Below, piece by piece: positions 8,451 through 34,836 of a DNA stretch of 34,836 nt. The notes below the pieces were generated by a model. That model saw only the letters and a program-made list of their open reading frames with translations. It was not told the DNA's origin and ran no database searches. The translations under genes were made by a program, and so were the position numbers. Origin of the DNA: a virus (taxonomy: Duplodnaviria > Heunggongvirae > Uroviricota > Caudoviricetes); the IMG/VR virus record IMGVR_UViG_2687453454_000001, positions 1 to 34,836 of that record; one strand, given 5' to 3'. Each line of letters opens with the position of its first letter. Position 1 is the first letter of the stretch.

Positions 8451-8828
8451 CTACTCGAGCGTTAGTTGCTCGGGACTGCATTTGTACAGTGTAGCTAGCC
8501 GTTCAAGGTTGTCTTTGCGAGGACGCTCAGACTTTTCGAACTCGGACACTGTAGATTGCTTAATTCCCAGCGCTTCAGCGACTTGTTTTTGCGTCAAGCC
8601 TCTGTAAACACGCCATGCAGCCTGCATGGTGCAACCCTTCTCAGAAAGAATGTTGATAACTTCGTTTGGGTATCGAACGTTATCAGATGTGCCGGTTTCG
8701 TTTTGAACAGGCTCGTATAACTCTGCGATATCACTATCACGGGTCAGTTTTTCGAACAGTTCAATCGGCACGACAGCAGAAATTCTTTTCCCTCTACTGT
8801 CTGTGATGAATTGAATGTTAGCCATCAC
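8451..8828 (-). CDS. HTH (XRE-type) protein, putative antitoxin
   Basis: 125 aa; C-terminal HTH LTQKQVAEALGIKQSTVSEFEKSER; lies downstream of the RelE/ParE-like gene on the same strand. Confidence 0.6.
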   Translation of the reverse strand: MMANIQFITDSRGKRISAVVPIELFEKLTRDSDIAELYEPVQNETGTSDNVRYPNEVINILSEKGCTMQAAWRVYRGLTQKQVAEALGIKQSTVSEFEKSERPRKDNLERLATLYKCSPEQLTLE

Positions 8829-9011
8829 TCTTTAGTCCTACGTAGATTGTTAAAAAACAAAGATTTTTAACTTATGCGTCTTCGACTGCGTAGACCACTT
8901 GATATAATTTTTGGCATCTAAATACTCCTAATTGGTTGATTGAAATTAAAAATTTTTTTTCTTCAACATCTACCGTTTGAGTTGACGGGGCGGGGTTTCC
9001 CCCGCCACTCA

Positions 9012-9290
9012 TCAATATGTCGTGGACGTTCGGCGCAAGATGCGCTGAATCTCGATCACTACAGGGGCATTGTTGCTTAAGGCATACAACACTCTGTAAT
9101 TCCCAACCCTCAGTCGATACTTACCATCACTATCAGTGAGCTTTTTAACATCAAGCCCCTTCAGGTCAGGATATGACTGCATCGCGTTAACCTTCTCGCG
9201 AACAGCTTTTTGATCTTTTGATGGTAGCGAGCGTAAGTCCTTAACGGCCTTACCAGTCCATTGAATGTTTGTCGTCATGACGAACCTCAA
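9012..9290 (-). CDS. RelE/ParE-superfamily toxin-like protein
   Basis: 92 aa; GKYRLRVGNYRVLYALSNNAPVVIEIQRILRR matches the RelE/ParE core pattern. Confidence 0.65.
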   Translation of the reverse strand: MRFVMTTNIQWTGKAVKDLRSLPSKDQKAVREKVNAMQSYPDLKGLDVKKLTDSDGKYRLRVGNYRVLYALSNNAPVVIEIQRILRRTSTTY

Positions 9291-9411: not shown

Positions 9412-9798
9412 GTGAGTGATACGGTGAATTTTGATGGGCTTTCACGGCAGGAAAAGCGAGAACTGGCACAGCGGTTTAGTGACGTTGTTCGAAGCAAACT
9501 TAAAACACGTCCACCGGAACGAGAAGAAGGGGCTGGACTATCGGTGAAGGAGCTTATAACTAAAGAACTACTTGAGCTATGTGGGATTGATGCCTGTGTC
9601 GGGATGATAAAATCAATAGTACCGGGAACGCATATTGGCTATATCGATCTGATTTTTGAGATCGAAGATGGACGTCTAGCGTTCAAAATTTGCTCAGAAA
9701 CAAACTTCAATGTTGCTACTAAACAAAAGATGGCGAACATTTTAGATAGAGATAGAATACTAAAAAGGTTGAAGCAAGCTTTGTTTACAAATGGATAG
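9412..9798 (+). CDS. hypothetical protein (128 aa), first gene of the AT-rich cargo pair
   Basis: ORF with GTG start at 9412 (alternative GTG at 9424); GC falls along the gene; ends 20 bp before the 944-aa ORF. Confidence 0.5.
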   Translation: MSDTVNFDGLSRQEKRELAQRFSDVVRSKLKTRPPEREEGAGLSVKELITKELLELCGIDACVGMIKSIVPGTHIGYIDLIFEIEDGRLAFKICSETNFNVATKQKMANILDRDRILKRLKQALFTNG

Positions 9799-9818
9799 GG
9801 CAAAAAAGATGCCTCGTT

Positions 9819-12653
9819 ATGTGTGTCGTTATTTACCACAAATTGGGATTGGTTATGAGCATTATGAAAATAGAAGTAAAAGGTAAGCCAAAAGGAGCAG
9901 TCATTTATATCAATGTCAAGAAAACCATAGCTTTTTATTTGACGATTTCAATTTTAATTCTGCTTGGGATGTATTTATCACGTTTTTGTTCTGTGCCATA
10001 TAAATATTTATTGATTAGCCCATCTTTTTATAATAATCCATATCTTAATTGGATAACTGGTGTTTGGGGTAGTTTTTTAGGCATGCACGGTACTATAGCT
10101 GCTTTGTCTATAACTTTTATGGGAATGTTTGTCGATCAGGTTTCAAAGACATCTGAACATGGTTTTGAGCATTTATCGAAAGTCTTATTGCTAAGAGAGT
10201 ATGATTTTTTAGGATTTAGTGTTGAATCAGTGTGTAGTCTATTATGTGGCGTTTTTTTACTTCTCATTGGTAGTGGCTTGATTGGATATTTAATTTCATC
10301 TTTACTTTCTTTATTTTTTATCACTAAATATGGCATTATGTATTATAGACTTTACCATTTAACAGAAGAACCCGGAGTTATTAATGGGATTTTATTAGAT
10401 TCTATCAGGACAACAGGCATCAAGTATAATGAGATTAACAAACAACGACAGATTCTTGCTAACGAGTTTTCTCAAGTAATATCGGGAGGTGATTACTACA
10501 GTGATGATCAAAGTGCCTTCTATTGGAATGATGATGCGATAACGATAAATATTTTTCCTGATGACACTGATGTGGTTATTTCTGGATACAATCCAAACAT
10601 ATTTAATCAGCTTTCGGTAAAGATTAAAGAATTTAATTTGAACCATCCGCCTATCTTGCTTTTCTCTTTATCATTCTTATCACCCATATCAAATTCCTCA
10701 ATGAAAATCATTCCATCTAATAAATCTGATTTGACAGAGGAGCATATTTCATCAATTGAATCAATTTTGAGGAAAGGGCTGATATTTAGTTCTGTTCCTT
10801 ATGTTTTTAATGAGTTTAAACAATTTGAAGAAGCTCTTGTAGTAAACGTCAGAAACAGTTTGCTGAATGGTGATGAGTGGACGTTAGATTTTGGAGTGCG
10901 TATTTTTTATGAACTAACTTCAAATGATAACTATATCTACACTCTAAAGAATATAGATTTGTCAATTACGTCCTCTAATACTAAAGATGTGGTGAAAACA
11001 TCTTTGTTTGCAAGTTATTTTGAAAAAATGATACGTGAGGCTTATAATCAGAGTAATCTTGAAAAGGCTGCTAATATAATGCGGTCGTTAATAGACCTAG
11101 CGAGATATATTTATGGTAAGAATAACTTTGTCGATTTTTATAAAAGGATTTTTAGACAATTTGACCATAGGGTAAAGTATCGTGCAGAAGAATCAAATTA
11201 TGTTTTTTTAGATCTGTATACATCCACTGTGCTGCACAACCTAGTATATAAGAATTATGCGGCTTTCAAAGTTGATACTGAGTTTGTGACGCGTAGATTG
11301 CAGTATCTAGATCTTAGCAATAAAACAGAACATGATTCATTGAATGAAATGCAACGTAAGATATTACGTTTATTATTTGAAGTTATATCCTTGCTAATTA
11401 TGCGAATAGAGCATGTGAAGGCGAAGGGTGAAGAACGCAAAGAGGAACTCAACGAATTAATCATTTCATTGAAGTCTTGGGTAAATGCTAAATTTTTGCA
11501 GGAATTATATTACAAAAAAGAGCTTTACGATGTGTTGTTTACTATACCTCAAGAGTTTTCGGTATTCGGTGCAGAAACTAAAATTCGAGAAATACCAGAT
11601 GGTGAAGCGACATGGAGATCAGTTTCGAACGATACTTATAAGATGATCGCATTCGTTCTTACGCAAAGCTCTTTCAACAATAATCAATTGAATCTTTTAT
11701 TTGTTAGAGATGCATTTCAATTTAAAAATGCTACGTCAATATTAACCCGCGAATTAAGTTCTATAATAGATTACATAGAGGGTGAATCTTTCTCTAAATT
11801 ATTTAAATTGATAACTGAAAAGGATTTGGTCGAAGATAGTAATAAAAAAACAGTAGTTGAGAAGTTGGAGTCGATTATTTCCTCGCAAAATTCTTTAGTG
11901 CTGCGCAGTGTGATCGAATCAGAATTAGAGCCTTCATTGGTTGATAAATATAGTAACGAGATCATACATTCTGTGGAGAAGCTATTTGAGCTAATTTTGC
12001 CATTGGAAGCAATTCCTTTAGAGATTGGATTCAATGGGATCGAATCACATCTATTAATTAATAAAAGAGAGGTGCTCCCCCCAATTGATGGTGTTTCTTA
12101 TGGAATGAACATTCATAACCATAGTCAGTGGTTAATATATGAATGGATCAGGAGTGTATTAAACAGTATTGATATAAATGCTGTGGAGGTTATCACTATT
12201 GATGACCCACAAGATTTGCCAACCGAAAAATTAGTTACCATAGAATATCAAGTTGAAGATAGAGTTAACACTTTTAGGCATTCTCGAGGTTTAAAAATTA
12301 ATGATAAGGAAGGCCATTTGAATTTGAATGGTTCTGGCTTGTATTATTTGGATTTATTAAATAACTTTAATTTAAAAAAATCAAAAGAAATACTAACGGT
12401 TAACATAGAAAAGATATTTGAAGGAAATATTGAAATGGTTAAAGGACGATATGATTTTGATAATGATAATCCTTATCTATATTCAATTTTAAATGTCGTT
12501 TTTAACATTGTTGCCATACCAAATATGATATGTAAACTTTATTTTCTATCGGAAGATAAATGTCTGTTAATCAATCAAAAACAAGAAAGAGAGATGGAGC
12601 AATTAATTAAAGGGAACAGAACGGAGAATCCTGATAACAGTAATGTATCTTAA
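9819..12653 (+). CDS. large AT-rich membrane-anchored protein of unknown function (944 aa)
   Basis: Uninterrupted 2.8-kb ORF in very AT-rich DNA; N-terminal hydrophobic helices (TIAFYLTISILILLGMYL, WITGVWGSFLGMHGTIAALSITFMGMFV, VCSLLCGVFLLLIGSGLIGYLISSLLSLFFI) then about 750 aa of soluble sequence; alternative starts at 9855 and 9864. Confidence 0.7.
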   Translation: MCVVIYHKLGLVMSIMKIEVKGKPKGAVIYINVKKTIAFYLTISILILLGMYLSRFCSVPYKYLLISPSFYNNPYLNWITGVWGSFLGMHGTIAALSITFMGMFVDQVSKTSEHGFEHLSKVLLLREYDFLGFSVESVCSLLCGVFLLLIGSGLIGYLISSLLSLFFITKYGIMYYRLYHLTEEPGVINGILLDSIRTTGIKYNEINKQRQILANEFSQVISGGDYYSDDQSAFYWNDDAITINIFPDDTDVVISGYNPNIFNQLSVKIKEFNLNHPPILLFSLSFLSPISNSSMKIIPSNKSDLTEEHISSIESILRKGLIFSSVPYVFNEFKQFEEALVVNVRNSLLNGDEWTLDFGVRIFYELTSNDNYIYTLKNIDLSITSSNTKDVVKTSLFASYFEKMIREAYNQSNLEKAANIMRSLIDLARYIYGKNNFVDFYKRIFRQFDHRVKYRAEESNYVFLDLYTSTVLHNLVYKNYAAFKVDTEFVTRRLQYLDLSNKTEHDSLNEMQRKILRLLFEVISLLIMRIEHVKAKGEERKEELNELIISLKSWVNAKFLQELYYKKELYDVLFTIPQEFSVFGAETKIREIPDGEATWRSVSNDTYKMIAFVLTQSSFNNNQLNLLFVRDAFQFKNATSILTRELSSIIDYIEGESFSKLFKLITEKDLVEDSNKKTVVEKLESIISSQNSLVLRSVIESELEPSLVDKYSNEIIHSVEKLFELILPLEAIPLEIGFNGIESHLLINKREVLPPIDGVSYGMNIHNHSQWLIYEWIRSVLNSIDINAVEVITIDDPQDLPTEKLVTIEYQVEDRVNTFRHSRGLKINDKEGHLNLNGSGLYYLDLLNNFNLKKSKEILTVNIEKIFEGNIEMVKGRYDFDNDNPYLYSILNVVFNIVAIPNMICKLYFLSEDKCLLINQKQEREMEQLIKGNRTENPDNSNVS

Positions 12654-12788
12654 AAAGAATAAGTGATTGATACCTTACTATCAATGCGCAAAATTTACAT
12701 GGAATTTTGTCAAAGTAGATCACGTGAGGCGGGGAAAATTGAAAATGATCTAAAGGTAATCGCTAGTCAAAAGATTGCACTAGGCGGC

Positions 12789-12887
12789 TGCACAATAGTG
12801 CACAAGTTTGCACAATTTTTGAAACAACGTTTTTTCCATGCCGCCCCAGCGCTGGCGGGGCCTGGGCGGACTGCACAAAGTGCACAA
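12789..12887. repeat. five copies of TGCACAA in the packaging region
   Basis: Copies at 12789, 12799, 12809 (exactly 10 bp apart) and 12872, 12881, immediately upstream of the cos-like sequence. Confidence 0.6.
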
Positions 12888-12909
12888 AAAGAGGCCGGTT
12901 TAGCGCGCA

Positions 12910-12930
12910 GGCGAGGCGGGGGAGCAAGCG
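12910..12930. other. cos site (P2-type cohesive-end sequence)
   Basis: GGCGAGGCGGGGGAGCAAGCG resembles the P2 19-nt cohesive end GGCGAGGCGGGGAAAGCAC as I recall it; lies next to the portal and terminase genes. Confidence 0.6.
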
Positions 12931-13161
12931 CGCGCAAAGGGGGGCAGGTAGGGGGGCATATCCTTCGCCATTCGCCGTCTGTCGGGTGCTCATGTTGATG
13001 GTTGAGCGAAGCGGCAGCGCGAGAGAAGTCGCGCCAGAAGCCCGTTGGCTGCGTCTGGTAGGGGGGGGGTTTATTTGTGTTTCGTGAGTGGCCGAGATGG
13101 CCGGAAATGATGGTGCTGCGGGTGGTACCGCACCGCCAGAAATGACGATGCGGCAAGGAGA

Positions 13162-16004: not shown

Positions 16005-16022
16005 TGTGGTGCTCCGCTCACA
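16005..16022. promoter_or_regulatory. Ogr/Delta-type late-promoter activator site (TGT-N12-ACA dyad)
   Basis: TGTGGTGCTCCGCTCACA in the divergent P/O intergenic region, about 55 bp upstream of the plausible O transcript start. Confidence 0.55.
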
Positions 16023-26419: not shown

Positions 26420-26702
26420 TTAACATCACCTCCCAAATCTGCGTTTCACTCTCTTCTGCATCTGAACCGTAGAAGCCAATTAATTCTACGATGATCTCTC
26501 CTGACTCCTTTCTGGCATTCAGTACAGGATTGGGGGTTAACACAGATACAAAATCGACCGCGATATCGCCATCATTCAGGATGCTAAAATCGAATGAATC
26601 GGCAACATCATCAACTTCAATCGTTAATACATCACCTTTTGCCGACACTTTCATGACGTAATCAGAACGCTGCGGGGTAAAGATTGCTTTCATCAGAACC
26701 AT
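26412..26702 (-). CDS. alternative tail fibre assembly protein, N-terminal-part ORF
   Basis: 96 aa; ends 8 nt after the next ORF's ATG; sits between H' and the Tfa C-terminal-domain ORF. Confidence 0.5.
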   Translation of the reverse strand: MVLMKAIFTPQRSDYVMKVSAKGDVLTIEVDDVADSFDFSILNDGDIAVDFVSVLTPNPVLNARKESGEIIVELIGFYGSDAEESETQIWEVMLNG

Positions 26703-27100
26703 CTCCCAACTGCTGTATATCCAAGATATGCCGCTGCATTTTGCACATTGCTAATCAGCGCCAGTGACGTCCCAGTCAGTGAACTACCGCGAACGGAAGG
26801 CCACGATGATGTACCACCTGTTGATAGTGGAGCAGAAGGTGCTACGGCTGGCCTGGTGCCAACGAAAGTTGCAGGAAAAGTGAACACAGATTCAGTGGAA
26901 AAATATAGGTTTGTCGTTCCACCACTAGGGTTACTTGTTATGGATTCGACCGACTTGGTAAAACAACAGATTAATGTTCCGTCGGCGAATTTTGTGTACT
27001 CACCATTTGAGTTAGATCCTCTCTCAATAATTGCCCCGGTCGGAACTCCCCCTGACTGAGATACTGTTCCTACGACATCAGCTTTAGCAGCCGTTCGCAA
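26693..27100 (-). CDS. alternative tail fibre C-terminal (receptor-binding) segment H', promoterless
   Basis: Reading frame runs from the right crossover site; Gly/Ser/Thr-rich, fibre-tip-like sequence; would fuse to the constant H N-terminus after inversion. Confidence 0.6.
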   Translation of the reverse strand: MRTAAKADVVGTVSQSGGVPTGAIIERGSNSNGEYTKFADGTLICCFTKSVESITSNPSGGTTNLYFSTESVFTFPATFVGTRPAVAPSAPLSTGGTSSWPSVRGSSLTGTSLALISNVQNAAAYLGYTAVGRWF

Positions 27101-27117
27101 ACCAACGTTTTCCGGAA
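27092..27117. repeat. right crossover site of the invertible segment
   Basis: CGTTCGCAAACC-AA-CGTTTTCCGGAA; its reverse complement resembles the left site with the matching central dinucleotide. Confidence 0.5.
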
Positions 27118-27223
27118 GACATGGTTACTTCTGACGGTGCGGTACCTAACCTGCAGTACAGCCAGAAATGACGATGCTCGATACAATGCGAGGGACTATG
27201 GCATCTAAATAAAGGGGATTTTT

Positions 27224-27793
27224 ATGCTGATCGGCTATGTTAGGGTGTCAACAAATGACCAGAACACCGCGCTGCAAAGAAATGCGCTGGAAAGCGCAGG
27301 ATGTGAACAAATATTTGAAGACAAAATAAGCGGCACAAAAGCGGAAAGGCCGGGGCTTAAGCGTTTATTACGAACCTTATCGAAGGGGGATACGCTGGTT
27401 GTCTGGAAGCTTGATCGTCTCGGGCGGAGCATGCGCCACTTGGTGACCATGATTGAAGAGCTACGCAATCGCGGTGTTAACTTCCGCAGCCTGACAGACA
27501 GCATTGATACCTCAACACCTATGGGGCGTTTTTTCTTTCACGTCATGGGGGCGCTGGCAGAAATGGAGAGAGAGTTAATCGTTGAGCGCACCCGCGCCGG
27601 TTTGGTTGCGGCTCGTGCAGAAGGAAGGATAGGAGGGAGGCGACCAAAACTGACAGAGCAGCAATGGGAACAGGCGGGAAGACTGATCGCCGCAGGGGAG
27701 AAACGACAGCGGGTGGCTATTATTTTTGATGTCGGAATATCGACACTTTATAAAAAGTTCCCTTCAACAAGAAGGGAACATGAAGGGGCTTAA
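27224..27793 (+). CDS. serine DNA invertase (Hin/Gin/Pin/Cin family)
   Basis: N-terminus MLIGYVRVSTNDQ with the catalytic serine context; GRRPKL and C-terminal HTH typical of this family. Confidence 0.92.
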   Translation: MLIGYVRVSTNDQNTALQRNALESAGCEQIFEDKISGTKAERPGLKRLLRTLSKGDTLVVWKLDRLGRSMRHLVTMIEELRNRGVNFRSLTDSIDTSTPMGRFFFHVMGALAEMERELIVERTRAGLVAARAEGRIGGRRPKLTEQQWEQAGRLIAAGEKRQRVAIIFDVGISTLYKKFPSTRREHEGA

Positions 27794-27800
27794 GGCATTA

Positions 27801-28298
27801 TTAAAACAGACCGTTGAGCGAGTCTTTCACCCGGTTTATCGCATTATTTGCACTCGTCTTTAACCCGGCCAGGGCATCGCTGACGGTCGAGCTTTGCAGC
27901 TTCTCCCTGTAATCCGAATCGACACGGCTTAGGGTGAGGGTAAATTCGATTTTTTTTGGATTCCCAAATCGGTCGAACTCGGACTTTCCCCGCTCCAGAC
28001 GTGTTAAAACGTACATACCATAAATACGCCCCGTACCCTCAATAAGCGGCCATGGGCGCCCTGCGTAGCCGACAGTTTCAAGGGCTGACAGCGAGATATT
28101 TCCACCGGTGATTTCCGGGTAAAGGACGCCTGACAGCGTTATATTGTCATCACCAGCACCAATGTACTGCCAACCGGCTGACTGGTTAACCCGCTCGTTT
28201 TTTACGTGCCTCCATTCCTGCGAGTGCTGGAGTTGCTGGTAAGGGGTGGTGCGCAGCATAAAAACGAACATTCCAAAAACCATCATCATAATCGTCAC
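27801..28298 (-). CDS. U: tail protein U (gpU-like)
   Basis: 165 aa; FVFMLRTTPYQQLQHSQEWRHV and ITLSGVLYPEITGG resemble P2 U as I recall it. Confidence 0.8.
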   Translation of the reverse strand: MTIMMMVFGMFVFMLRTTPYQQLQHSQEWRHVKNERVNQSAGWQYIGAGDDNITLSGVLYPEITGGNISLSALETVGYAGRPWPLIEGTGRIYGMYVLTRLERGKSEFDRFGNPKKIEFTLTLSRVDSDYREKLQSSTVSDALAGLKTSANNAINRVKDSLNGLF

Positions 28299-31022
28299 CT
28301 ATTCTCTGTCGCGGAAAGAACCACGGTTAATTCTGCCGGTGCTGGCCATCGCATCACGCACAACATTGCGCATCATTCTTTCCAGCTCCTGATCCGTGCG
28401 TTTACCAACATCGTTAAAGATAATGTTAAAAATTGGGGCGCCGCCGGTCGGAGCGGTAACGGGAGCTGATACCGGGGCCTGTGTGGCGGCGGTCGCGGAA
28501 ATAATGCCCCCAGCTGCGGGCGTTGCCACTCGAGATACTGATTGCGGTATGACACGCGCTTCCTGATATGCGCCACGCAAAGCCAGGGCACGCGGCAGGT
28601 TTTTGAAAATAATGTCACCCGGTCCGACTTTCTTGGTGTTGTCAGCGGTTGCTTTTGTATTGTCTGCTATGCTTTGCAGACGTCGTTGCGTACCGGTATT
28701 TCCTGACAGCGGCGAGACCGCAGGTGGTGCGCCAGTAGCAACTGGCGACTCTGCTTTTTTGGGGGACCAGTTCCATTCCTTCTGGACCATTTTCTTTTGC
28801 TGTGGGTCCCACTCCCATGAAACTGGTTTTTTGGGCGCGAGATCGTTGACTTTGTCTCTCGCAGCGTCAATTCCGGATGGAATTAAACCCAGCTTTTCCA
28901 GCAAAAGGCTGACTCCTTCAGTCAGCAGTCGCAGGGGGGTAAAGAGTAAATTTAATGCGGTACCGAGTACCTCACCAAATGTTTTCCCGGCACTGGCACA
29001 TGTGTCCAGCGCATCACGAGAAAAGTCTATAGGGGTGAATAACTGGCTAAACCAGCTCCATAACTTAGATACACCGACGCCAATTGCATCAAACAATGGG
29101 ATTAAAAACGAAAACGACTGAATCAGTGGTGACAGACCCAGACTGATACCAGTAAACAGACCAGAGAAAAACGCCTTGATAGGCTCCCAGAATCGCAATA
29201 TGAGCAGGCTGGCGGCAACAAATGCCGCAACAATAAGGCCAGGAACGCCGAGTAACGAGGCGAGAATTACCCGTAAACCAGAGAACGCAACGCCAAGTGT
29301 CGATACGCAACTGGTCGCTGTGATCGATGATATACCAATCATGCTTAAGGCCAGCCGGAGCTTCGCCAATGGGCCGAGAATGAAACTCACTGTTAAGCTT
29401 GCGATGCCAAGAGCACCGACAAGTACCATAATCGCGCCACCAATCAGGATAAATGTCTGTGTCAGGCGGGGATTTTCTTTAACCCAGGTGCTGGCGGCAG
29501 TAATCAAGTCGCTGAGTCCCTGAGTAAGAGATCGCAGAGGGCCATCGGTGGTCTCTTCGACCTGAATGCGGAAACCTTCCCATGCGCTGTCTAGGTTTTT
29601 CAGATCGCCGCTGAGGTTGTCAGCCATGACCTTCGCCGCCTTCTGCGCTTCACCCTGAGAGCCGCGCAAATCAGCCAGGAGTTTTTGCAGCTCACCGCTA
29701 CCAGCCGATCTAACCAGTGCCTGAAATGACTTTGCCGCTTCCTCGCCTGCTATGTCTTTGAAGAATGACAGCTGGTCTGTGTCACCGTACTTTTTGATAG
29801 ATTTATAAATATCAGATAAGACTACTTCGGCAGGTCGCATTTTTCCGGTGGCATCAGCAACAGAAACGCCCAATTCTTTCAAGGCTGCCTGAGCTTTTCC
29901 TGTTGGTGCAGCCAGACGCGAAAAGGTGGTTTGTAGGCCAGTACCTGCAATACTGCCACGCAGGCCAACGTTCGCCATTACACCGATCATGGCGGTTGTG
30001 CGCTCAACATCAACGCCAAGACCGGCCATCCCGGTTCCTGCATACTTCATCGCCTCACCGATGTTCATTAAATCGGTGTTAGTACGGGTAAATGCCGCGG
30101 TCAAAACATCACTGACCCGATCCATCTCCTTTGGATCGAGACGGAACTGCGAAAGAATGTTAGAGCTGATGTCGGCACTTTCACCAAGATCCATGCCACC
30201 GGCGAGCGCCATATTCAGAACGCCAGGCAATGCAGCCTGAATAGCAGCCGGAGTAAAGCCAGCCATTGCAAGAAACGCCTGCCCGCTGGCTGCATCGCGC
30301 GAAGTAAATGCGGTTTCGGCACCGAGTTTTTTGGCCTGCGCACGCAGGTCTGCCAGTTGGGAGGCGTCTTTGTTGAGTCGGGTTAATGCCTGAACGCGTG
30401 ACATTTCCTCATCGAAACCAATCGCAGGCGCCAGGAATGATCCGCCAGCGTAGCCCGCAGCAGCAGTGCCTAGCATCATCCCCATGCCTGCCCCGCGAAG
30501 CTTGCCCGCAGTCTCTTTAGCTCGATCATACCCGGCCTGTGCTTTTTGGGTAGCAGCCAGCTGGCGACGTTCGCGCTCAAGTGTCTGGTTGTATTGCTCC
30601 GTACGCCTGATGGCACTTTGGATAGCGCCGCTCCCGGTGGTGAGGTTAACGCCATGCTGACGCACTGCCTGCGCGGCTGTGCGCAGCTGCGTCGTTTGCC
30701 TGCCGTAGGTTTCAGTCAGCCGGGAAAGTTTGGTACGAAGTGACTCAAGTCGCGCCGTCTGGGCTTCAGTAAGCTGACCACCTTCGCGTTGTTTCTGGTT
30801 GAGGCCGTCAAAGGCTCGCTGGGTGCTTTTCAGCTTCTGCGCAGTGTCATTGGCTTGCGAGCGCAACTTATCAAATGACGCTGCGCTTTTTTCTAGGTCT
30901 TTGATTGAGGACTGTGTTTTTTTGAGGGAGTCGGAAAGGCCGCCAATGGCTTTACTGGCGGCGTTGACCGGGCGGGTGAGCTTGTCAATTGCACTGAACG
31001 CAACGCGAATACTAAGATCCAT
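28299..31022 (-). CDS. T: tail tape measure protein (gpT-like)
   Basis: About 907 aa; Ala/Gly-rich helical sequence with hydrophobic central segments; best start at the ATG at 31022 after GAAGGAGG (ORF track begins at 31043). Confidence 0.88.
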   Translation of the reverse strand: MDLSIRVAFSAIDKLTRPVNAASKAIGGLSDSLKKTQSSIKDLEKSAASFDKLRSQANDTAQKLKSTQRAFDGLNQKQREGGQLTEAQTARLESLRTKLSRLTETYGRQTTQLRTAAQAVRQHGVNLTTGSGAIQSAIRRTEQYNQTLERERRQLAATQKAQAGYDRAKETAGKLRGAGMGMMLGTAAAGYAGGSFLAPAIGFDEEMSRVQALTRLNKDASQLADLRAQAKKLGAETAFTSRDAASGQAFLAMAGFTPAAIQAALPGVLNMALAGGMDLGESADISSNILSQFRLDPKEMDRVSDVLTAAFTRTNTDLMNIGEAMKYAGTGMAGLGVDVERTTAMIGVMANVGLRGSIAGTGLQTTFSRLAAPTGKAQAALKELGVSVADATGKMRPAEVVLSDIYKSIKKYGDTDQLSFFKDIAGEEAAKSFQALVRSAGSGELQKLLADLRGSQGEAQKAAKVMADNLSGDLKNLDSAWEGFRIQVEETTDGPLRSLTQGLSDLITAASTWVKENPRLTQTFILIGGAIMVLVGALGIASLTVSFILGPLAKLRLALSMIGISSITATSCVSTLGVAFSGLRVILASLLGVPGLIVAAFVAASLLILRFWEPIKAFFSGLFTGISLGLSPLIQSFSFLIPLFDAIGVGVSKLWSWFSQLFTPIDFSRDALDTCASAGKTFGEVLGTALNLLFTPLRLLTEGVSLLLEKLGLIPSGIDAARDKVNDLAPKKPVSWEWDPQQKKMVQKEWNWSPKKAESPVATGAPPAVSPLSGNTGTQRRLQSIADNTKATADNTKKVGPGDIIFKNLPRALALRGAYQEARVIPQSVSRVATPAAGGIISATAATQAPVSAPVTAPTGGAPIFNIIFNDVGKRTDQELERMMRNVVRDAMASTGRINRGSFRDRE

Positions 31023-31484
31023 CGTCATCATCCTCCTTCTCATGGTTACCGCTTCTGATGGCCGCCCGTTCGCGCCAGGCCATCAGCTCGCGCAACTCCA
31101 TGCTGTGCATTTCGGAGGGCGGCCAGTGAAATATCACAGCGATGTCGGCGATCAGATCGTCGACATCACTGAATACTGCCTCTCTTACTTGCTCGCCGTC
31201 GCCGCCTCTCTCGGTGCGGACGGCGCCGCTTTCGTCAAAAAAGGCGTGATTTCTTCGCACAGTGCCGTAAAGTCTCCGGTCGCCATTGAGGAAATATCGG
31301 TGGTTGTCAGCTGAGGTGCGGTGACGCGAGTCAGTAGAGTTGATACCGCGTCATAGTCGAAGTTGAGAACATCAACCAGACGCAGCCCGCGCAGTGAGCC
31401 AGCCTGCTTGATTGTGTCGGTGATTGCGACGGATTTGATTTCCTGGTCGCCGCGTTTAATGGGTTGGCTGAGAGTTACTGACAT
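31012..31484 (-). CDS. tail assembly chaperone frameshift product E+E' (programmed -1 frameshift)
   Basis: The -1 frame ORF 31012..31260 overlaps the E 3' end; slippery heptamer TTTTTTG occupies 31242..31236 on the minus strand. Confidence 0.7.
31185..31484 (-). CDS. E: tail assembly chaperone (gpE-like)
   Basis: 99 aa, between the tail tube and tape measure genes; contains a slippery TTTTTTG near its 3' end. Confidence 0.8.
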   Translation of the reverse strand: MSVTLSQPIKRGDQEIKSVAITDTIKQAGSLRGLRLVDVLNFDYDAVSTLLTRVTAPQLTTTDISSMATGDFTALCEEITPFLTKAAPSAPREAATASK

Positions 31485-31538
31485 TATATTTTCTCCGGGC
31501 GGCCATTCTGGCCACCATTGGTAGTGGTAAAAAAAAGA

Positions 31539-32054
31539 TTACTGGCCGAGACCCAGGGCGGACGCAATGCGGTCCGGGTAGAGACTCTTGCCGTTGCGCT
31601 TGTAGATGAAGTTCAGCAGGTCGATTTCCAGCAAAGGCTTGTCATCCACGGAGAGCTTGTAATACGTATTTTTGAGCGCATAAGTATGGCTGGTGTCATC
31701 ACCCTGCTTGGCTTCGCCCTGGTCAACTTCGGTAATACGTCCGCGCATCTCGACCTCAAGCAGGGAACTTGTTCCACCGCTGTAGATCTCACCGACAAAG
31801 CGCGTGCGTAGTTCGTCAATATCTCCGCCCCATTTCAGAATCAGCTCTTCGACCATGCCGCCAACAACCATTGATGCATCCAGTGCACCTGAATCAAGGC
31901 CGAGGTCGACAGCAGCGGAGCCAAGCATCCCACCACCCTGGTAATCTTCCGTTTTACGGGTAATTTTGGGGAGCGTGACGCTGGGGATTTTCCCGATGTA
32001 GTTGTCACCATCGACAAACATCGTGAACAGGCGGAGTTTCTTCGGAATAGCCAT
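31539..32054 (-). CDS. FII: tail tube protein (gpFII-like)
   Basis: 171 aa; P2 FII-like sequence; directly downstream of the sheath gene. Confidence 0.88.
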   Translation of the reverse strand: MAIPKKLRLFTMFVDGDNYIGKIPSVTLPKITRKTEDYQGGGMLGSAAVDLGLDSGALDASMVVGGMVEELILKWGGDIDELRTRFVGEIYSGGTSSLLEVEMRGRITEVDQGEAKQGDDTSHTYALKNTYYKLSVDDKPLLEIDLLNFIYKRNGKSLYPDRIASALGLGQ

Positions 32055-33236
32055 TTATGCACCTCCCAGCGATGCAAAGGCTGGTTCGTAATACTGATCG
32101 GTAAACGTCTGGATCAGCGTTAAATCTTCCAGCGGTGGTACGGGGCTGTAGTTGTAGCGAACAACGGCTTTACCCTGGCGAATACCGGTGGTCGGGTTAT
32201 CGACAATATCAAACCAGCATGCAGCACCAATCAGTTTGCCAGCAGTAACCAGCGCCTGAAGTTTGGCATTGATCCCACTCACGACGTCTTTGACGTTAGC
32301 CGGGGTAAGCGGTTTGTCCACGGTGGTGAATTGTGCTTCCGCAATGCTGTCCGCCAGAATTTGGGCAGTACGGGTAAATACCTCGAAAATATACTCTTCG
32401 GTGTCGGTGGTGCGGTTCCCCCAGAACCGGAAGCCGTCGCGTTTGATCAGCGTGGTAATCTCGTTGGCGTTCAGCTCGTTAGCGTCGGAGTCCTCCGCCT
32501 GTAACGCCCAGAAAACGTCTTTAGAGATACCTAGGACGTTTTTAACCGCAACGTTAGAAAGTGACTTGTGCCAGCCCTGCTCATTGTCAATCAGTGCCCG
32601 CAGGCCAAGCGCATAGGCAACAGCCGGGAATTCTTCATTAACGCCGGTCTGCGGGTTGTAGGCGATGAAGTTAGGCCAAATCATCATCCCTTCACGTTCG
32701 GCAAACTGCTCGCGGTAGGTTTTCGCTTCGGCAATAGTCTCGCAGCTATCGCAGTAACTGTAAGAGAATGCACGCAGCTGCTTCGCAATTACGCGTAGCT
32801 GTGCGGTTACTTCCTGCGTGTCGTACATCGGAATGCCGAGGATGCGAGGGCGGTAACCGGTTTTCTGCTCTGCGGTCAGCAGGGCAAACATCCCGGTATA
32901 GCTTCCGTCAGCCTGTGTGCCACCGATAATGAGCTGGGATTGCGTTTTGGCATTTTCTCCTTCCTTTGCTTCAGCGACACGAACAACAATTACACGCGTG
33001 CTGACCTGGTCGGAAATAGCCTTGAGAGATTTATACAGTGAGCCTGTTTTGCCCGCCTTACCCAGCACGCTAATCACGCGAGTGATCAGGACTGGCGTAT
33101 CAAGTGGAAAGGTGAGGGGATCGGCATCATCGGCCACCGCAACCAGACCAATGACCGTTGAATCAATGTCATTGATCGCGGTCTGGAGGTCGGTGTTTTC
33201 TTTGGTGCGCGCCCCGTGGAAAAAGTTGTCGGTCAT
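32055..33236 (-). CDS. FI: contractile tail sheath protein (gpFI-like)
   Basis: 393 aa; P2 FI-like sequence and order. Confidence 0.9.
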   Translation of the reverse strand: MTDNFFHGARTKENTDLQTAINDIDSTVIGLVAVADDADPLTFPLDTPVLITRVISVLGKAGKTGSLYKSLKAISDQVSTRVIVVRVAEAKEGENAKTQSQLIIGGTQADGSYTGMFALLTAEQKTGYRPRILGIPMYDTQEVTAQLRVIAKQLRAFSYSYCDSCETIAEAKTYREQFAEREGMMIWPNFIAYNPQTGVNEEFPAVAYALGLRALIDNEQGWHKSLSNVAVKNVLGISKDVFWALQAEDSDANELNANEITTLIKRDGFRFWGNRTTDTEEYIFEVFTRTAQILADSIAEAQFTTVDKPLTPANVKDVVSGINAKLQALVTAGKLIGAACWFDIVDNPTTGIRQGKAVVRYNYSPVPPLEDLTLIQTFTDQYYEPAFASLGGA

Positions 33237-33311
33237 ACTCTACCGCCATCATGTTTAGTGAGTTCATGGTGATATTCGCTGAATTCCGGGCGGCAGACAC
33301 GTTGCGATGGA

Positions 33312-33329
33312 TGTCGCAGAAAGGCGACA
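33312..33329. promoter_or_regulatory. Ogr/Delta-type late-promoter activator site (TGT-N12-ACA)
   Basis: TGTCGC-AGAAAG-GCGACA perfect dyad between the divergent FI and D genes. Confidence 0.55.
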
Positions 33330-33387
33330 ACAAAAGGCTGTTTGTCCTATCGCGCGCGCATGGAAATATTTGCGGGAGGAGAAAGCG

Positions 33388-34542
33388 ATGGCACTGACAA
33401 CTGAGGCAATAGAGAGCGCAAAAAGCCTGCTGAATGCGGGTGCTGAGAAATTCAAAAATTATCCTGGCGACTTGTCACGTGTGCCAGCGTTTAACGTAAC
33501 GCTTGGCGGCAGAGCGCTGATCATGCTGGATGAGAAACTGATCTCGTTAGAATTAACAGATAACAGGGGCTTTAATGCTGATGAACTGACTATCACTGTT
33601 GATGACAGCCAGGGAGATATTGAGTTACCGCCACGTGGCGCTGAGTTATCGGTAGCGATAGGTTGGCAGGGAGAAAAACTGGTACACAAAGGGATTTTCA
33701 TCGTGGATGAAATTGCGCACTCAGGGCCGCCGGACCGTATCGAGATCACGGCCAGAAGTGCAGATTTCCGCGATGAATTTAACGTTAAGCGGGAGGTGTC
33801 GTGGCATGATGTTACAGTAGAGCGCATCGTCTCTGCTATAGCTCACAGGTACAAGTTAAAACCTCTCATCTCAGAGCAACTGATGTCCGCCGAGATCGAT
33901 CATGCAGATCAGACGCAGGAAAGCGATATGTCGTTTCTGACGCGCATGGCGGAAATGCTGGGCGCTATTGCAACTGTGAAAAATGGTTACCTTCTCTTCA
34001 TCCTGCCTGGTGGCGGTGTCAGCGCAAACGGCAGAGCGTTGCCGGAATTTTCCATCACGCGCAGCAGCGGAGATCGCCATTCTTTCCGGATTGCAGATCG
34101 CGACGCATATACTGGCGTGCAGGCGTACTGGCTTGATATGGATTTCGGGAAAAAGAAAAAGGTTACTGTTAAAAAGCGGAAGAAAACCGCAGACAAAAAG
34201 CCGCGCAGCAGCAGCCGGGAAGGGGACTATATTGCCGGTGAAGATGGTAACGTTTTTGTACTCCGTACGACGTACAGCAGTGAGATAGCCGCACAACGTG
34301 CAGCAGCTGCAAAATGGCAACAACTCCAGCGCGGAGCTGCTGAGTTCTCTTTAACCCTGGCTTACGGGCGCGCGGATCTGTATCCGGAGATGCACGGAAC
34401 GGTAACGGAGTTCAAAGACGTCATTGACGGCCAGGATTGGATAATTGCGAAGGCAAGCCACACTGTTGACGATAGTGGGTTTAAAACGCGGCTGGAGTTG
34501 GAAGCAAAAATACCTGAATGGATTGCAGAAACCGAATCATAG
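33388..34542 (+). CDS. D: tail protein D (late control gene D family)
   Basis: About 384 aa from the ATG at 33388 after GGGAGGAG (ORF track begins at 33307); P2 D-like. Confidence 0.85.
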   Translation: MALTTEAIESAKSLLNAGAEKFKNYPGDLSRVPAFNVTLGGRALIMLDEKLISLELTDNRGFNADELTITVDDSQGDIELPPRGAELSVAIGWQGEKLVHKGIFIVDEIAHSGPPDRIEITARSADFRDEFNVKREVSWHDVTVERIVSAIAHRYKLKPLISEQLMSAEIDHADQTQESDMSFLTRMAEMLGAIATVKNGYLLFILPGGGVSANGRALPEFSITRSSGDRHSFRIADRDAYTGVQAYWLDMDFGKKKKVTVKKRKKTADKKPRSSSREGDYIAGEDGNVFVLRTTYSSEIAAQRAAAAKWQQLQRGAAEFSLTLAYGRADLYPEMHGTVTEFKDVIDGQDWIIAKASHTVDDSGFKTRLELEAKIPEWIAETES

Positions 34543-34587
34543 CGGCCATAATATGAGCGAGTTCAACTCCCGCCATGGGAGGCCATT

Positions 34588-34836
34588 ATGTTTAAGTGTC
34601 CTGTTTGTGGTGCCGTCGCCCGTACGCGCACCAGTCGCCCTCTTAGTGAAATGACAGTCCGGCATTATCACCAGTGCCAGAATTTCGAATGCAGTATTAC
34701 GTTTACTACGCTCAACAGCGTTGAGAAGCTTGTAACCAAACGCGCGCCCCGCGAAAAGTTACCGGCTGATTTCATCCCATCCGATGCTTTCCCTGCTTCG
34801 CACTATGGGAGGAATCAGCTTAATTTGGCCCTCTAA
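34588..34836 (+). CDS. ogr: Ogr/Delta-family zinc-finger late-gene activator
   Basis: MFKCPVCG...RHYHQCQNFECSITF has the Cys4 zinc-finger spacing of P2 Ogr. Confidence 0.85.
   Translation: MFKCPVCGAVARTRTSRPLSEMTVRHYHQCQNFECSITFTTLNSVEKLVTKRAPREKLPADFIPSDAFPASHYGRNQLNLAL

Follow-up and report, generated by a model that had tools for sequence, protein, structure and literature searches.

The tail genes FI through U of the P2-like prophage in IMG/VR record IMGVR_UViG_2687453454_000001 (analyzed over its whole 34,836 nucleotides [nt], called the window here) lie on the strand opposite to that of the genes flanking them. Our data make it very likely that this inversion is an old, fixed, and inherited clade character, which had a single origin from the collinear gene order and in which the adjacent DNA invertase was not involved. 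A first-pass annotation of the same sequence had described an inversion of about 5.5 kb with one endpoint next to the invertase gene, or possibly an assembly error. Relative to P2, it is indeed exactly FI..U that is inverted; however, the inversion is not peculiar to this prophage, since every sampled locus whose gpD (the late control D protein) is nearer to that of the window than to that of P2 has the same layout (123/123, from more than 20 enterobacterial genera).

Orientation of the FI-U block in the window and its relatives

The window is an essentially complete P2-like (Peduoviridae) prophage of a lineage that includes Xuanwuvirus (P88) and Reginaelenavirus (3LV2017). It matches a prophage of E. 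coli EC26 from the tRNA Gly-Cys-Leu cluster and the integrase gene through to ogr, and the ogr end of the EC26 prophage adjoins yecA. Genes were called from a table of open reading frames (ORFs) and Pfam scans, and their starts were checked against the RefSeq annotation of the identical EC26 prophage. Together, Pfam, the RefSeq annotation, and tblastn with P2 proteins revealed a P2-like tail late-gene set comprising an Ogr-type activator in addition to FI, FII, E/E', T, U, and D. The plus strand carries H, G, and the baseplate genes. U, T, E/E', FII, and FI (27801-33236) are on the minus strand, bracketed by the invertase gene and by D and ogr (33388-34836) on the plus strand, just as the first-pass annotation had placed them. 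The genes concerned are as follows:

27224..27793, plus strand: serine DNA invertase of the Gin/Cin/Hin/Pin type (Pfam Resolvase, 6.6e-53; HTH_7, 1e-12)
27801..28298, minus strand: gpU tail protein (Pfam Phage_P2_GpU, 1.3e-41; RefSeq start 28289)
28299..31043, minus strand: gpT tape measure (Pfam PhageMin_Tail, 1.8e-49; RefSeq start 31022)
31012..31155, minus strand: E' part of the frameshifted tail assembly chaperone (RefSeq 'GpE family phage tail protein' of the identical EC26 prophage, coordinates converted)
31185..31484, minus strand: gpE tail assembly chaperone (Pfam Phage_TAC_7, E = 1.1e-4, below the gathering score; RefSeq annotation)
31539..32054, minus strand: FII tail tube (Pfam Phage_tube, 1e-46)
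32055..33236, minus strand: FI tail sheath (Pfam Phage_sheath_1, sheath_1C, and Gp18_domIII_N)
33388..34542, plus strand: gpD baseplate hub/late control D protein (Pfam Phage_GPD; RefSeq start; 50% identical to P2 gpD)
34588..34836, plus strand: ogr/Delta-like zinc-finger late activator gene (RefSeq annotation of the identical prophage; tblastn with P2 Ogr), ending at the window edge

The longest ORF for D begins at 33307, and the ATG at 33388, which is preceded by GGAGG and coincides with the RefSeq start, is the likely true start.

The P2 record (NC_001895) has V-W-J-I-H-G, FI-FII-E-T-U-D, and ogr all on one strand, which agrees with the P2 order stated in the first-pass annotation. In that record, FI..D form a single operon transcribed from the promoter pF; D closes this operon and overlaps the stop codon of U. 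This canonical arrangement, with FI..U collinear with H/G and D, and D last in the F operon, is absent from the window. Instead, the window has the layout of the inverted lineage, in which FI is divergent from D across a spacer of ~150 nt and U is distal and convergent with the fiber operon.

To place the window among its relatives, we fetched loci via a gpD alignment that included both the window and P2, taking the best gpD matches in each of two collections (species-representative genomes and IMG/VR, 80 loci each). Classes were assigned by tblastn with the tail proteins of the window and of P2, and 158 loci, those with D and FI both in range, could be classified. This analysis uncovered 123 inverted loci (FI..U opposite to D, with FI abutting D) and 35 collinear ones, such that FI-U orientation separates two groups cleanly in this sample. 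Class follows gpD affinity without exception: identity to the window gpD is 56-100% in the inverted class versus 46-51% in the collinear class. Inverted loci occur in Yokenella, Raoultella, Klebsiella, Kosakonia, Enterobacter, Serratia, Erwinia, Brenneria, Salmonella, Edwardsiella, Citrobacter, Pantoea, Providencia, Photorhabdus, Xenorhabdus, Morganella, Yersinia, Hafnia, and Pectobacterium, among others. A comparison with related phages, which the first-pass annotation had called for, shows the arrangement to be inverted relative to P2 and to be the lineage norm in P88, 3LV2017, and KSP20, the outcome named there as speaking against its own proposal.

Neighbor-joining (NJ) trees rooted on phiCTX were built for gpD, which lies outside the block (111 distinct tips), and for FI, which lies inside it (106 tips). 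In both trees the inverted loci, including the window, form a single clade with zero collinear tips within it. Inspection of the records revealed that FI-U is collinear in P2, Fels-2, phiCTX, and one Mannheimia phage, the last two being the distant Peduoviridae of the sample, and the P2 order is therefore probably ancestral; most likely, the inverted order is derived and arose once. The Burkholderia phages KS5, KS14, and KL3 are collinear as well, with D, U, and T contiguous on one strand (tables in PMC3091744). An inverted layout in Fels-2 was considered and rejected on the basis of its record.

Several points weigh against a single in situ inversion. The trees are NJ topologies without bootstrap, sampling by gpD similarity (the best 80 per collection) could miss intermediate lineages, and the loci are phylogenetically related, so their counts do not represent independent events. 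In addition, the FI tree places the inverted clade beside the Mannheimia phage, whereas the gpD tree places it beside the enterobacterial collinear group. This mismatch leaves room for cassette exchange, in which the ancestor would have received FI-U and its promoter, in reverse orientation, from a different Peduoviridae lineage in place of its own, a scenario also in keeping with the general mosaicism of Peduoviridae. However, the incongruence comes from an unsupported NJ topology, and the block comprises exactly FI..U together with a P2-type pF dyad at the P2 distance (see below), for which simple inversion is the most economical explanation. We consider cassette exchange unlikely, and the same fixed, clade-wide arrangement results either way.

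An assembly error, i.e., a 5.5-kb block placed in the wrong orientation, has nothing in its favor other than that the gene order deviates from that of P2. Across seven complete E. coli genomes of different laboratory and host origin, the sequence spanning FI/D is 100% identical to that of the window, and all seven also have an intact invertase/U junction. Moreover, the layout recurs in more than 100 independent assemblies and in isolated phage genomes, and the block ends have no repeats able to mislead an assembler. The probability of such an error is negligible.

Two loci of the survey are unusual in themselves. In L164 (IMGVR_UViG_2654587728_000014), which alone has an aberrant gene pattern, FI, FII, and T are inverted, but the best U match is on the strand of D at -8077; an invertase match lies on the opposite strand at -7535, and T is seemingly shortened. 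This locus may be a rearranged or chimeric contig. L018 (NZ_JBQPOM010000071.1) is a typical enterobacterial inverted-class prophage (gpD 73% identical) in a genome labeled as that of a Gram-positive genus (Vagococcus sp. WN89Y), for which assembly contamination or mislabeling is the likeliest explanation.

The adjacent invertase and the tail fiber switch

The segment that the invertase flips is not the FI-U block but a stretch of ~1.7 kb on its other side, which begins within the tail fiber gene H:

24566..25777, plus strand: tail fiber gene H (Pfam Phage_tail_fib and Phage_fiber_2), with its constant part extending to ~25408 and its C-terminal part within the invertible segment
25395..25420, unstranded: left crossover site, TTCTCCAAAACC-TT-CAATTGGGAGAA, core TT at 25407-8; top dyad-consensus score in the window (14/18), with the BN01 breakpoint inside it
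25409..27103, unstranded: invertible fiber segment, ~1.7 kb, with alternative fiber C-termini and fiber-assembly genes (Caudo_TAP domain at 25750-26196)
27092..27117, unstranded: right crossover site, CGTTCGCAAACC-AA-CGTTTTCCGGAA, core AA at 27104-5, complementary to the left core; score 13/18, joint second

In E. coli BN01, 25409-27103 is flipped at 99.9% identity, whereas 17500-25408 and 27104-34836, which includes the whole FI-U block, are collinear with the window. Among the seven identical E. coli prophages, three match the fiber region collinearly and four match it in two pieces covering 59%; the flip itself was mapped in BN01 only. The fiber segment is thus an active switch that is flipped by the invertase, and both of its orientations are found in nature. 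Since the annotation marks one of the two fiber-assembly genes as partial, a defective fiber set may result from one orientation. In BN01 (L170, 15889-17339), D and ogr are both annotated as frameshifted pseudogenes, and the alignment to 27104-34836 of the window has six gap openings; these frameshifts reflect either a decaying prophage copy or homopolymer assembly errors.

Given this activity in the prophage family, and given that only 7 bp separate the stop codons of the convergent invertase and U genes, the same enzyme could be thought to have recently inverted FI-U in this prophage by acting at a secondary site. The block does share one trait with invertible segments, namely an adjoining serine invertase gene (Resolvase plus HTH_7). 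However, the position of one endpoint beside the invertase, which the first-pass annotation had pointed out, is no sign of the action of the enzyme. Among the 101 inverted loci with enough flanking sequence, an invertase is found upstream in 22, and 79 have the inverted orientation without it. The same is true of 3LV2017, which shows that block orientation is independent of the invertase. Conversely, an invertase occurs in 1 of 31 collinear loci and also in Fels-2, where it lies directly upstream of FI and the orientation is nevertheless collinear. A tie between invertase presence and orientation was rejected on these counts, as there is no correlation.

The ends of the block were also searched for recombination sites. 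In a consensus scan of the window, the best dyad scores there are 10 and 9 of 18, which is background (more than 770 window positions score at least 9), and thus no crossover-like site was found at either end. A second copy of the right crossover site is absent from the window at up to 3 mismatches, and AAACCNNNGTTT occurs in it once. The short inverted repeats that the first-pass annotation had suggested looking for at 27794-27800 and 33237-33387 are not there: no pair links the two intervals among the 25 longest of the 109 inverted-repeat pairs found. In addition, FI-U orientation is constant, with no polymorphism in the seven identical prophages or the 123 related loci. A recent inversion by the neighboring enzyme is therefore highly improbable, and the position of the invertase beside the FI-U block is coincidental.

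An ancient version of this event, in which a fiber-type invertase inverted the block once at pseudo-sites that have since eroded, is very unlikely too, if slightly less so. Invertase modules recur at the boundary between fiber and tail genes in both classes, and the ancestor could have had one at the left breakpoint; however, neither block end retains a trace of a site, and most clade members lack an invertase. A 5.5-kb inversion at pseudo-sites is also improbable because serine invertases of the Gin/Cin/Hin/Pin type depend on an enhancer and on 2-bp cores that match.

The FI/D spacer and its predicted promoters

Under the favored reading of a single ancestral inversion, the event would have moved FI together with the late promoter pF and the activator site of that promoter, with breakpoints upstream of pF and at the U/D boundary. 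The single F operon of P2 (FI..D) would have been split into two divergent units, one running from pF through FI, FII, E, E', T, and U and probably ending at a hairpin at 27757-27779, and the other comprising D and ogr. Since D is cut off from the F operon by the inversion, it needs its own promoter. We give about an even chance to the possibility that the inversion turned the one-way pF into a two-way, Ogr-dependent promoter resembling pP/pO of P2, leaving D and ogr to form a short late unit by themselves. The features relevant to this proposal are as follows:

27757..27779, minus strand: terminator-like hairpin with a 9-bp stem followed by TTTTTATAAA (T-run), from the consensus scan; just 3' of the U stop codon, within the 3' end of the invertase ORF
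33237..33387, unstranded: divergent FI/D spacer, 151 nt
33272..33277, minus strand: putative pF -10 (GAATAT), placed from P2 geometry and partly conserved; predicted start ~33265, 55.5 nt from the dyad center
33312..33329, unstranded: Ogr/Delta-type activator dyad TGTCGCAGAAAGGCGACA (TGT-N12-ACA), centered at 33320.5, with 84.5 nt to the FI ATG and 67.5 nt to the D ATG
33361..33369, plus strand: putative extended -10 of a D promoter (TG-G-AAATAT), placed from conservation and geometry; predicted start ~33376, 55.5 nt from the dyad center

The spacer is 150-153 nt long in all 55 loci in which D aligns from residue 1, and it holds one Ogr-type dyad, TGT-N12-ACA being what we take to be the consensus for Ogr/Delta-type activators. 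The dyad is found at the same offset in 120 of the 123 inverted loci (72 exact matches and 48 of the form TCT-N12-ACA). Upstream of FI, 30 of 33 distinct collinear-class regions carry this dyad as well, and at an equal distance; at the annotated pF of P2, the distance from the dyad center to the FI ATG is 82.5 nt, versus 84.5 nt in the window. This fixed distance in both classes indicates that pF traveled with FI. The window contains seven exact TGT-N12-ACA matches, no more than expected by chance, and the argument accordingly rests on position and conservation rather than on the number of matches.

The half-sites of the dyad are conserved and its 12-nt middle is variable, and a conservation profile of 45 distinct spacers revealed conserved -10-like blocks on both sides. 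The block TCGCGCGCGCATGRAA (33350-33365), whose 3' part belongs to the putative D-side extended -10, is invariant or almost so, with an invariant alternating CG run, in the window, L001, L002, and 42 other loci with gpD identities of 70-98%. As is expected where late promoters depend on an activator, a consensus scan of the FI/D spacer revealed no strong sigma-70 promoter. In P2, pP and pO share a dyad that is centered 55.5 nt from each of two annotated divergent starts (NC_001895), and the P/O spacer of the window carries the same kind of dyad (16005-16022). By analogy, the one conserved mid-spacer dyad would activate both divergent promoters, with starts ~55 nt to either side.

What tempers this proposal is that both promoters, and the D-side one above all, are deduced from sequence geometry only. 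The D-side -10 is weak, reading AAATAT in the window and AACCAT in relatives, and the start predicted from it would leave a leader of only ~12 nt.

At the other end of the block, the hairpin is probably the putative end of the FI-U transcript. It falls within the last ~12 codons of the invertase ORF. Since the two genes converge and their ends are 7 bp apart, late transcription of FI-U would run antisense into the 3' end of the invertase gene unless it is stopped at this hairpin.

Other features, significance, and comparison with known systems

Elsewhere in the window, an island of low GC content (9412-12998; 0.32-0.37 versus about 0.50-0.59 in neighboring phage genes) occupies the position of old/tin in P2, with the replication endonuclease gene on one side and the portal gene on the other. 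Within it, a 944-amino-acid (aa) ORF (9819-12653; annotated in RefSeq as a 'hypothetical protein' starting at 9855) has flanking ORFs of 128 and 111 aa, and none of the three has a Pfam, PADLOC, or NCBIfam match at E<=0.01. The 944-aa ORF is a candidate uncharacterized cargo or anti-phage gene. A RelE-family toxin gene and a helix-turn-helix (HTH) gene lie just upstream of the island (8451-9278).

The inverted arrangement itself is already known in that it is plain in deposited records and is routinely annotated in RefSeq for identical prophages. Among open-access papers and preprints, we found none commenting on the FI-U inversion or the split of the F operon, and it goes unmentioned in Lynch 2010, in the P88 paper, and in a 2026 survey of P2-like genomes. 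As the normal state of a large, sequenced, and classified P2-like group, the arrangement matters little for discovery. For annotators and prophage callers, however, the layout is no ground to flag a misassembly or a degraded prophage. The two-way re-use of the pF activator site, with D and ogr as a separate late unit, would be an only modestly new idea. If true, the clade would exemplify, in nature, the repair of a split operon through re-use of an activator site that was already there, and ogr may have gained a tighter positive feedback loop than it has in P2.

The F operon of P2 and the window agree in gene content (FI, FII, E/E', T, U, D, and ogr) and have one type of activator site, equally far upstream of FI. 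The difference is that the P2 genes are collinear with H and G, whereas in the window FI-U is inverted and D forms a separate divergent unit. The closest parallel to the proposed two-way promoter is pP/pO of P2, where, as at P/O in the window, a single activator dyad lies between two divergent late genes; the likeness of the FI/D spacer to this system is our deduction. The sites differ in that those of P2 read TGT-N12-CCA and those of the window TGT-N12-ACA. Exact TGT-N12-ACA was considered for the P2 activator sites and rejected, as the annotated pF and pP/pO are TGT-N12-CCA and the five exact matches of P2 lie elsewhere.

Escherichia phage P88 (P88_4B11; Xuanwuvirus, Peduoviridae; LR595891) has the order and strands of the window, i.e., fiber, invertible fiber segment, invertase (plus), U-T-E'-E-FII-FI (minus), and D (plus), including the convergent invertase/U junction. 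Its gpD is 73.6% identical to that of the window. P88 belongs to another species-level lineage, has other fiber and cargo genes, and has a gap of 28 nt between invertase and U versus 7 in the window. P88 is inducible and plaque-forming, and its growth curve has been measured (PMC5285337). In Klebsiella phage 3LV2017 (Reginaelenavirus; NC_047817) and Serratia phage KSP20 (AB452988), whose gpD proteins are 82% and 78% identical to that of the window, respectively, U-T-E-FII-FI are likewise on the strand opposite to D. Both have an FI/D spacer of ~153 nt with the dyad and conserved blocks of the window. Unlike the window, 3LV2017 has neither an invertase nor an invertible fiber segment.

Finally, the fiber segment of the window behaves like a classical member of the Gin/Cin/Hin/Pin family of invertible segments (Mu G, P1 C, e14 P, and the Fels-2 fiber segment), with which it shares a serine invertase, two 26-bp dyad sites, complementary 2-bp cores, alternative fiber C-termini, and the natural occurrence of both orientations. 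The FI-U block, unlike these segments, has neither such sites nor orientation polymorphism.

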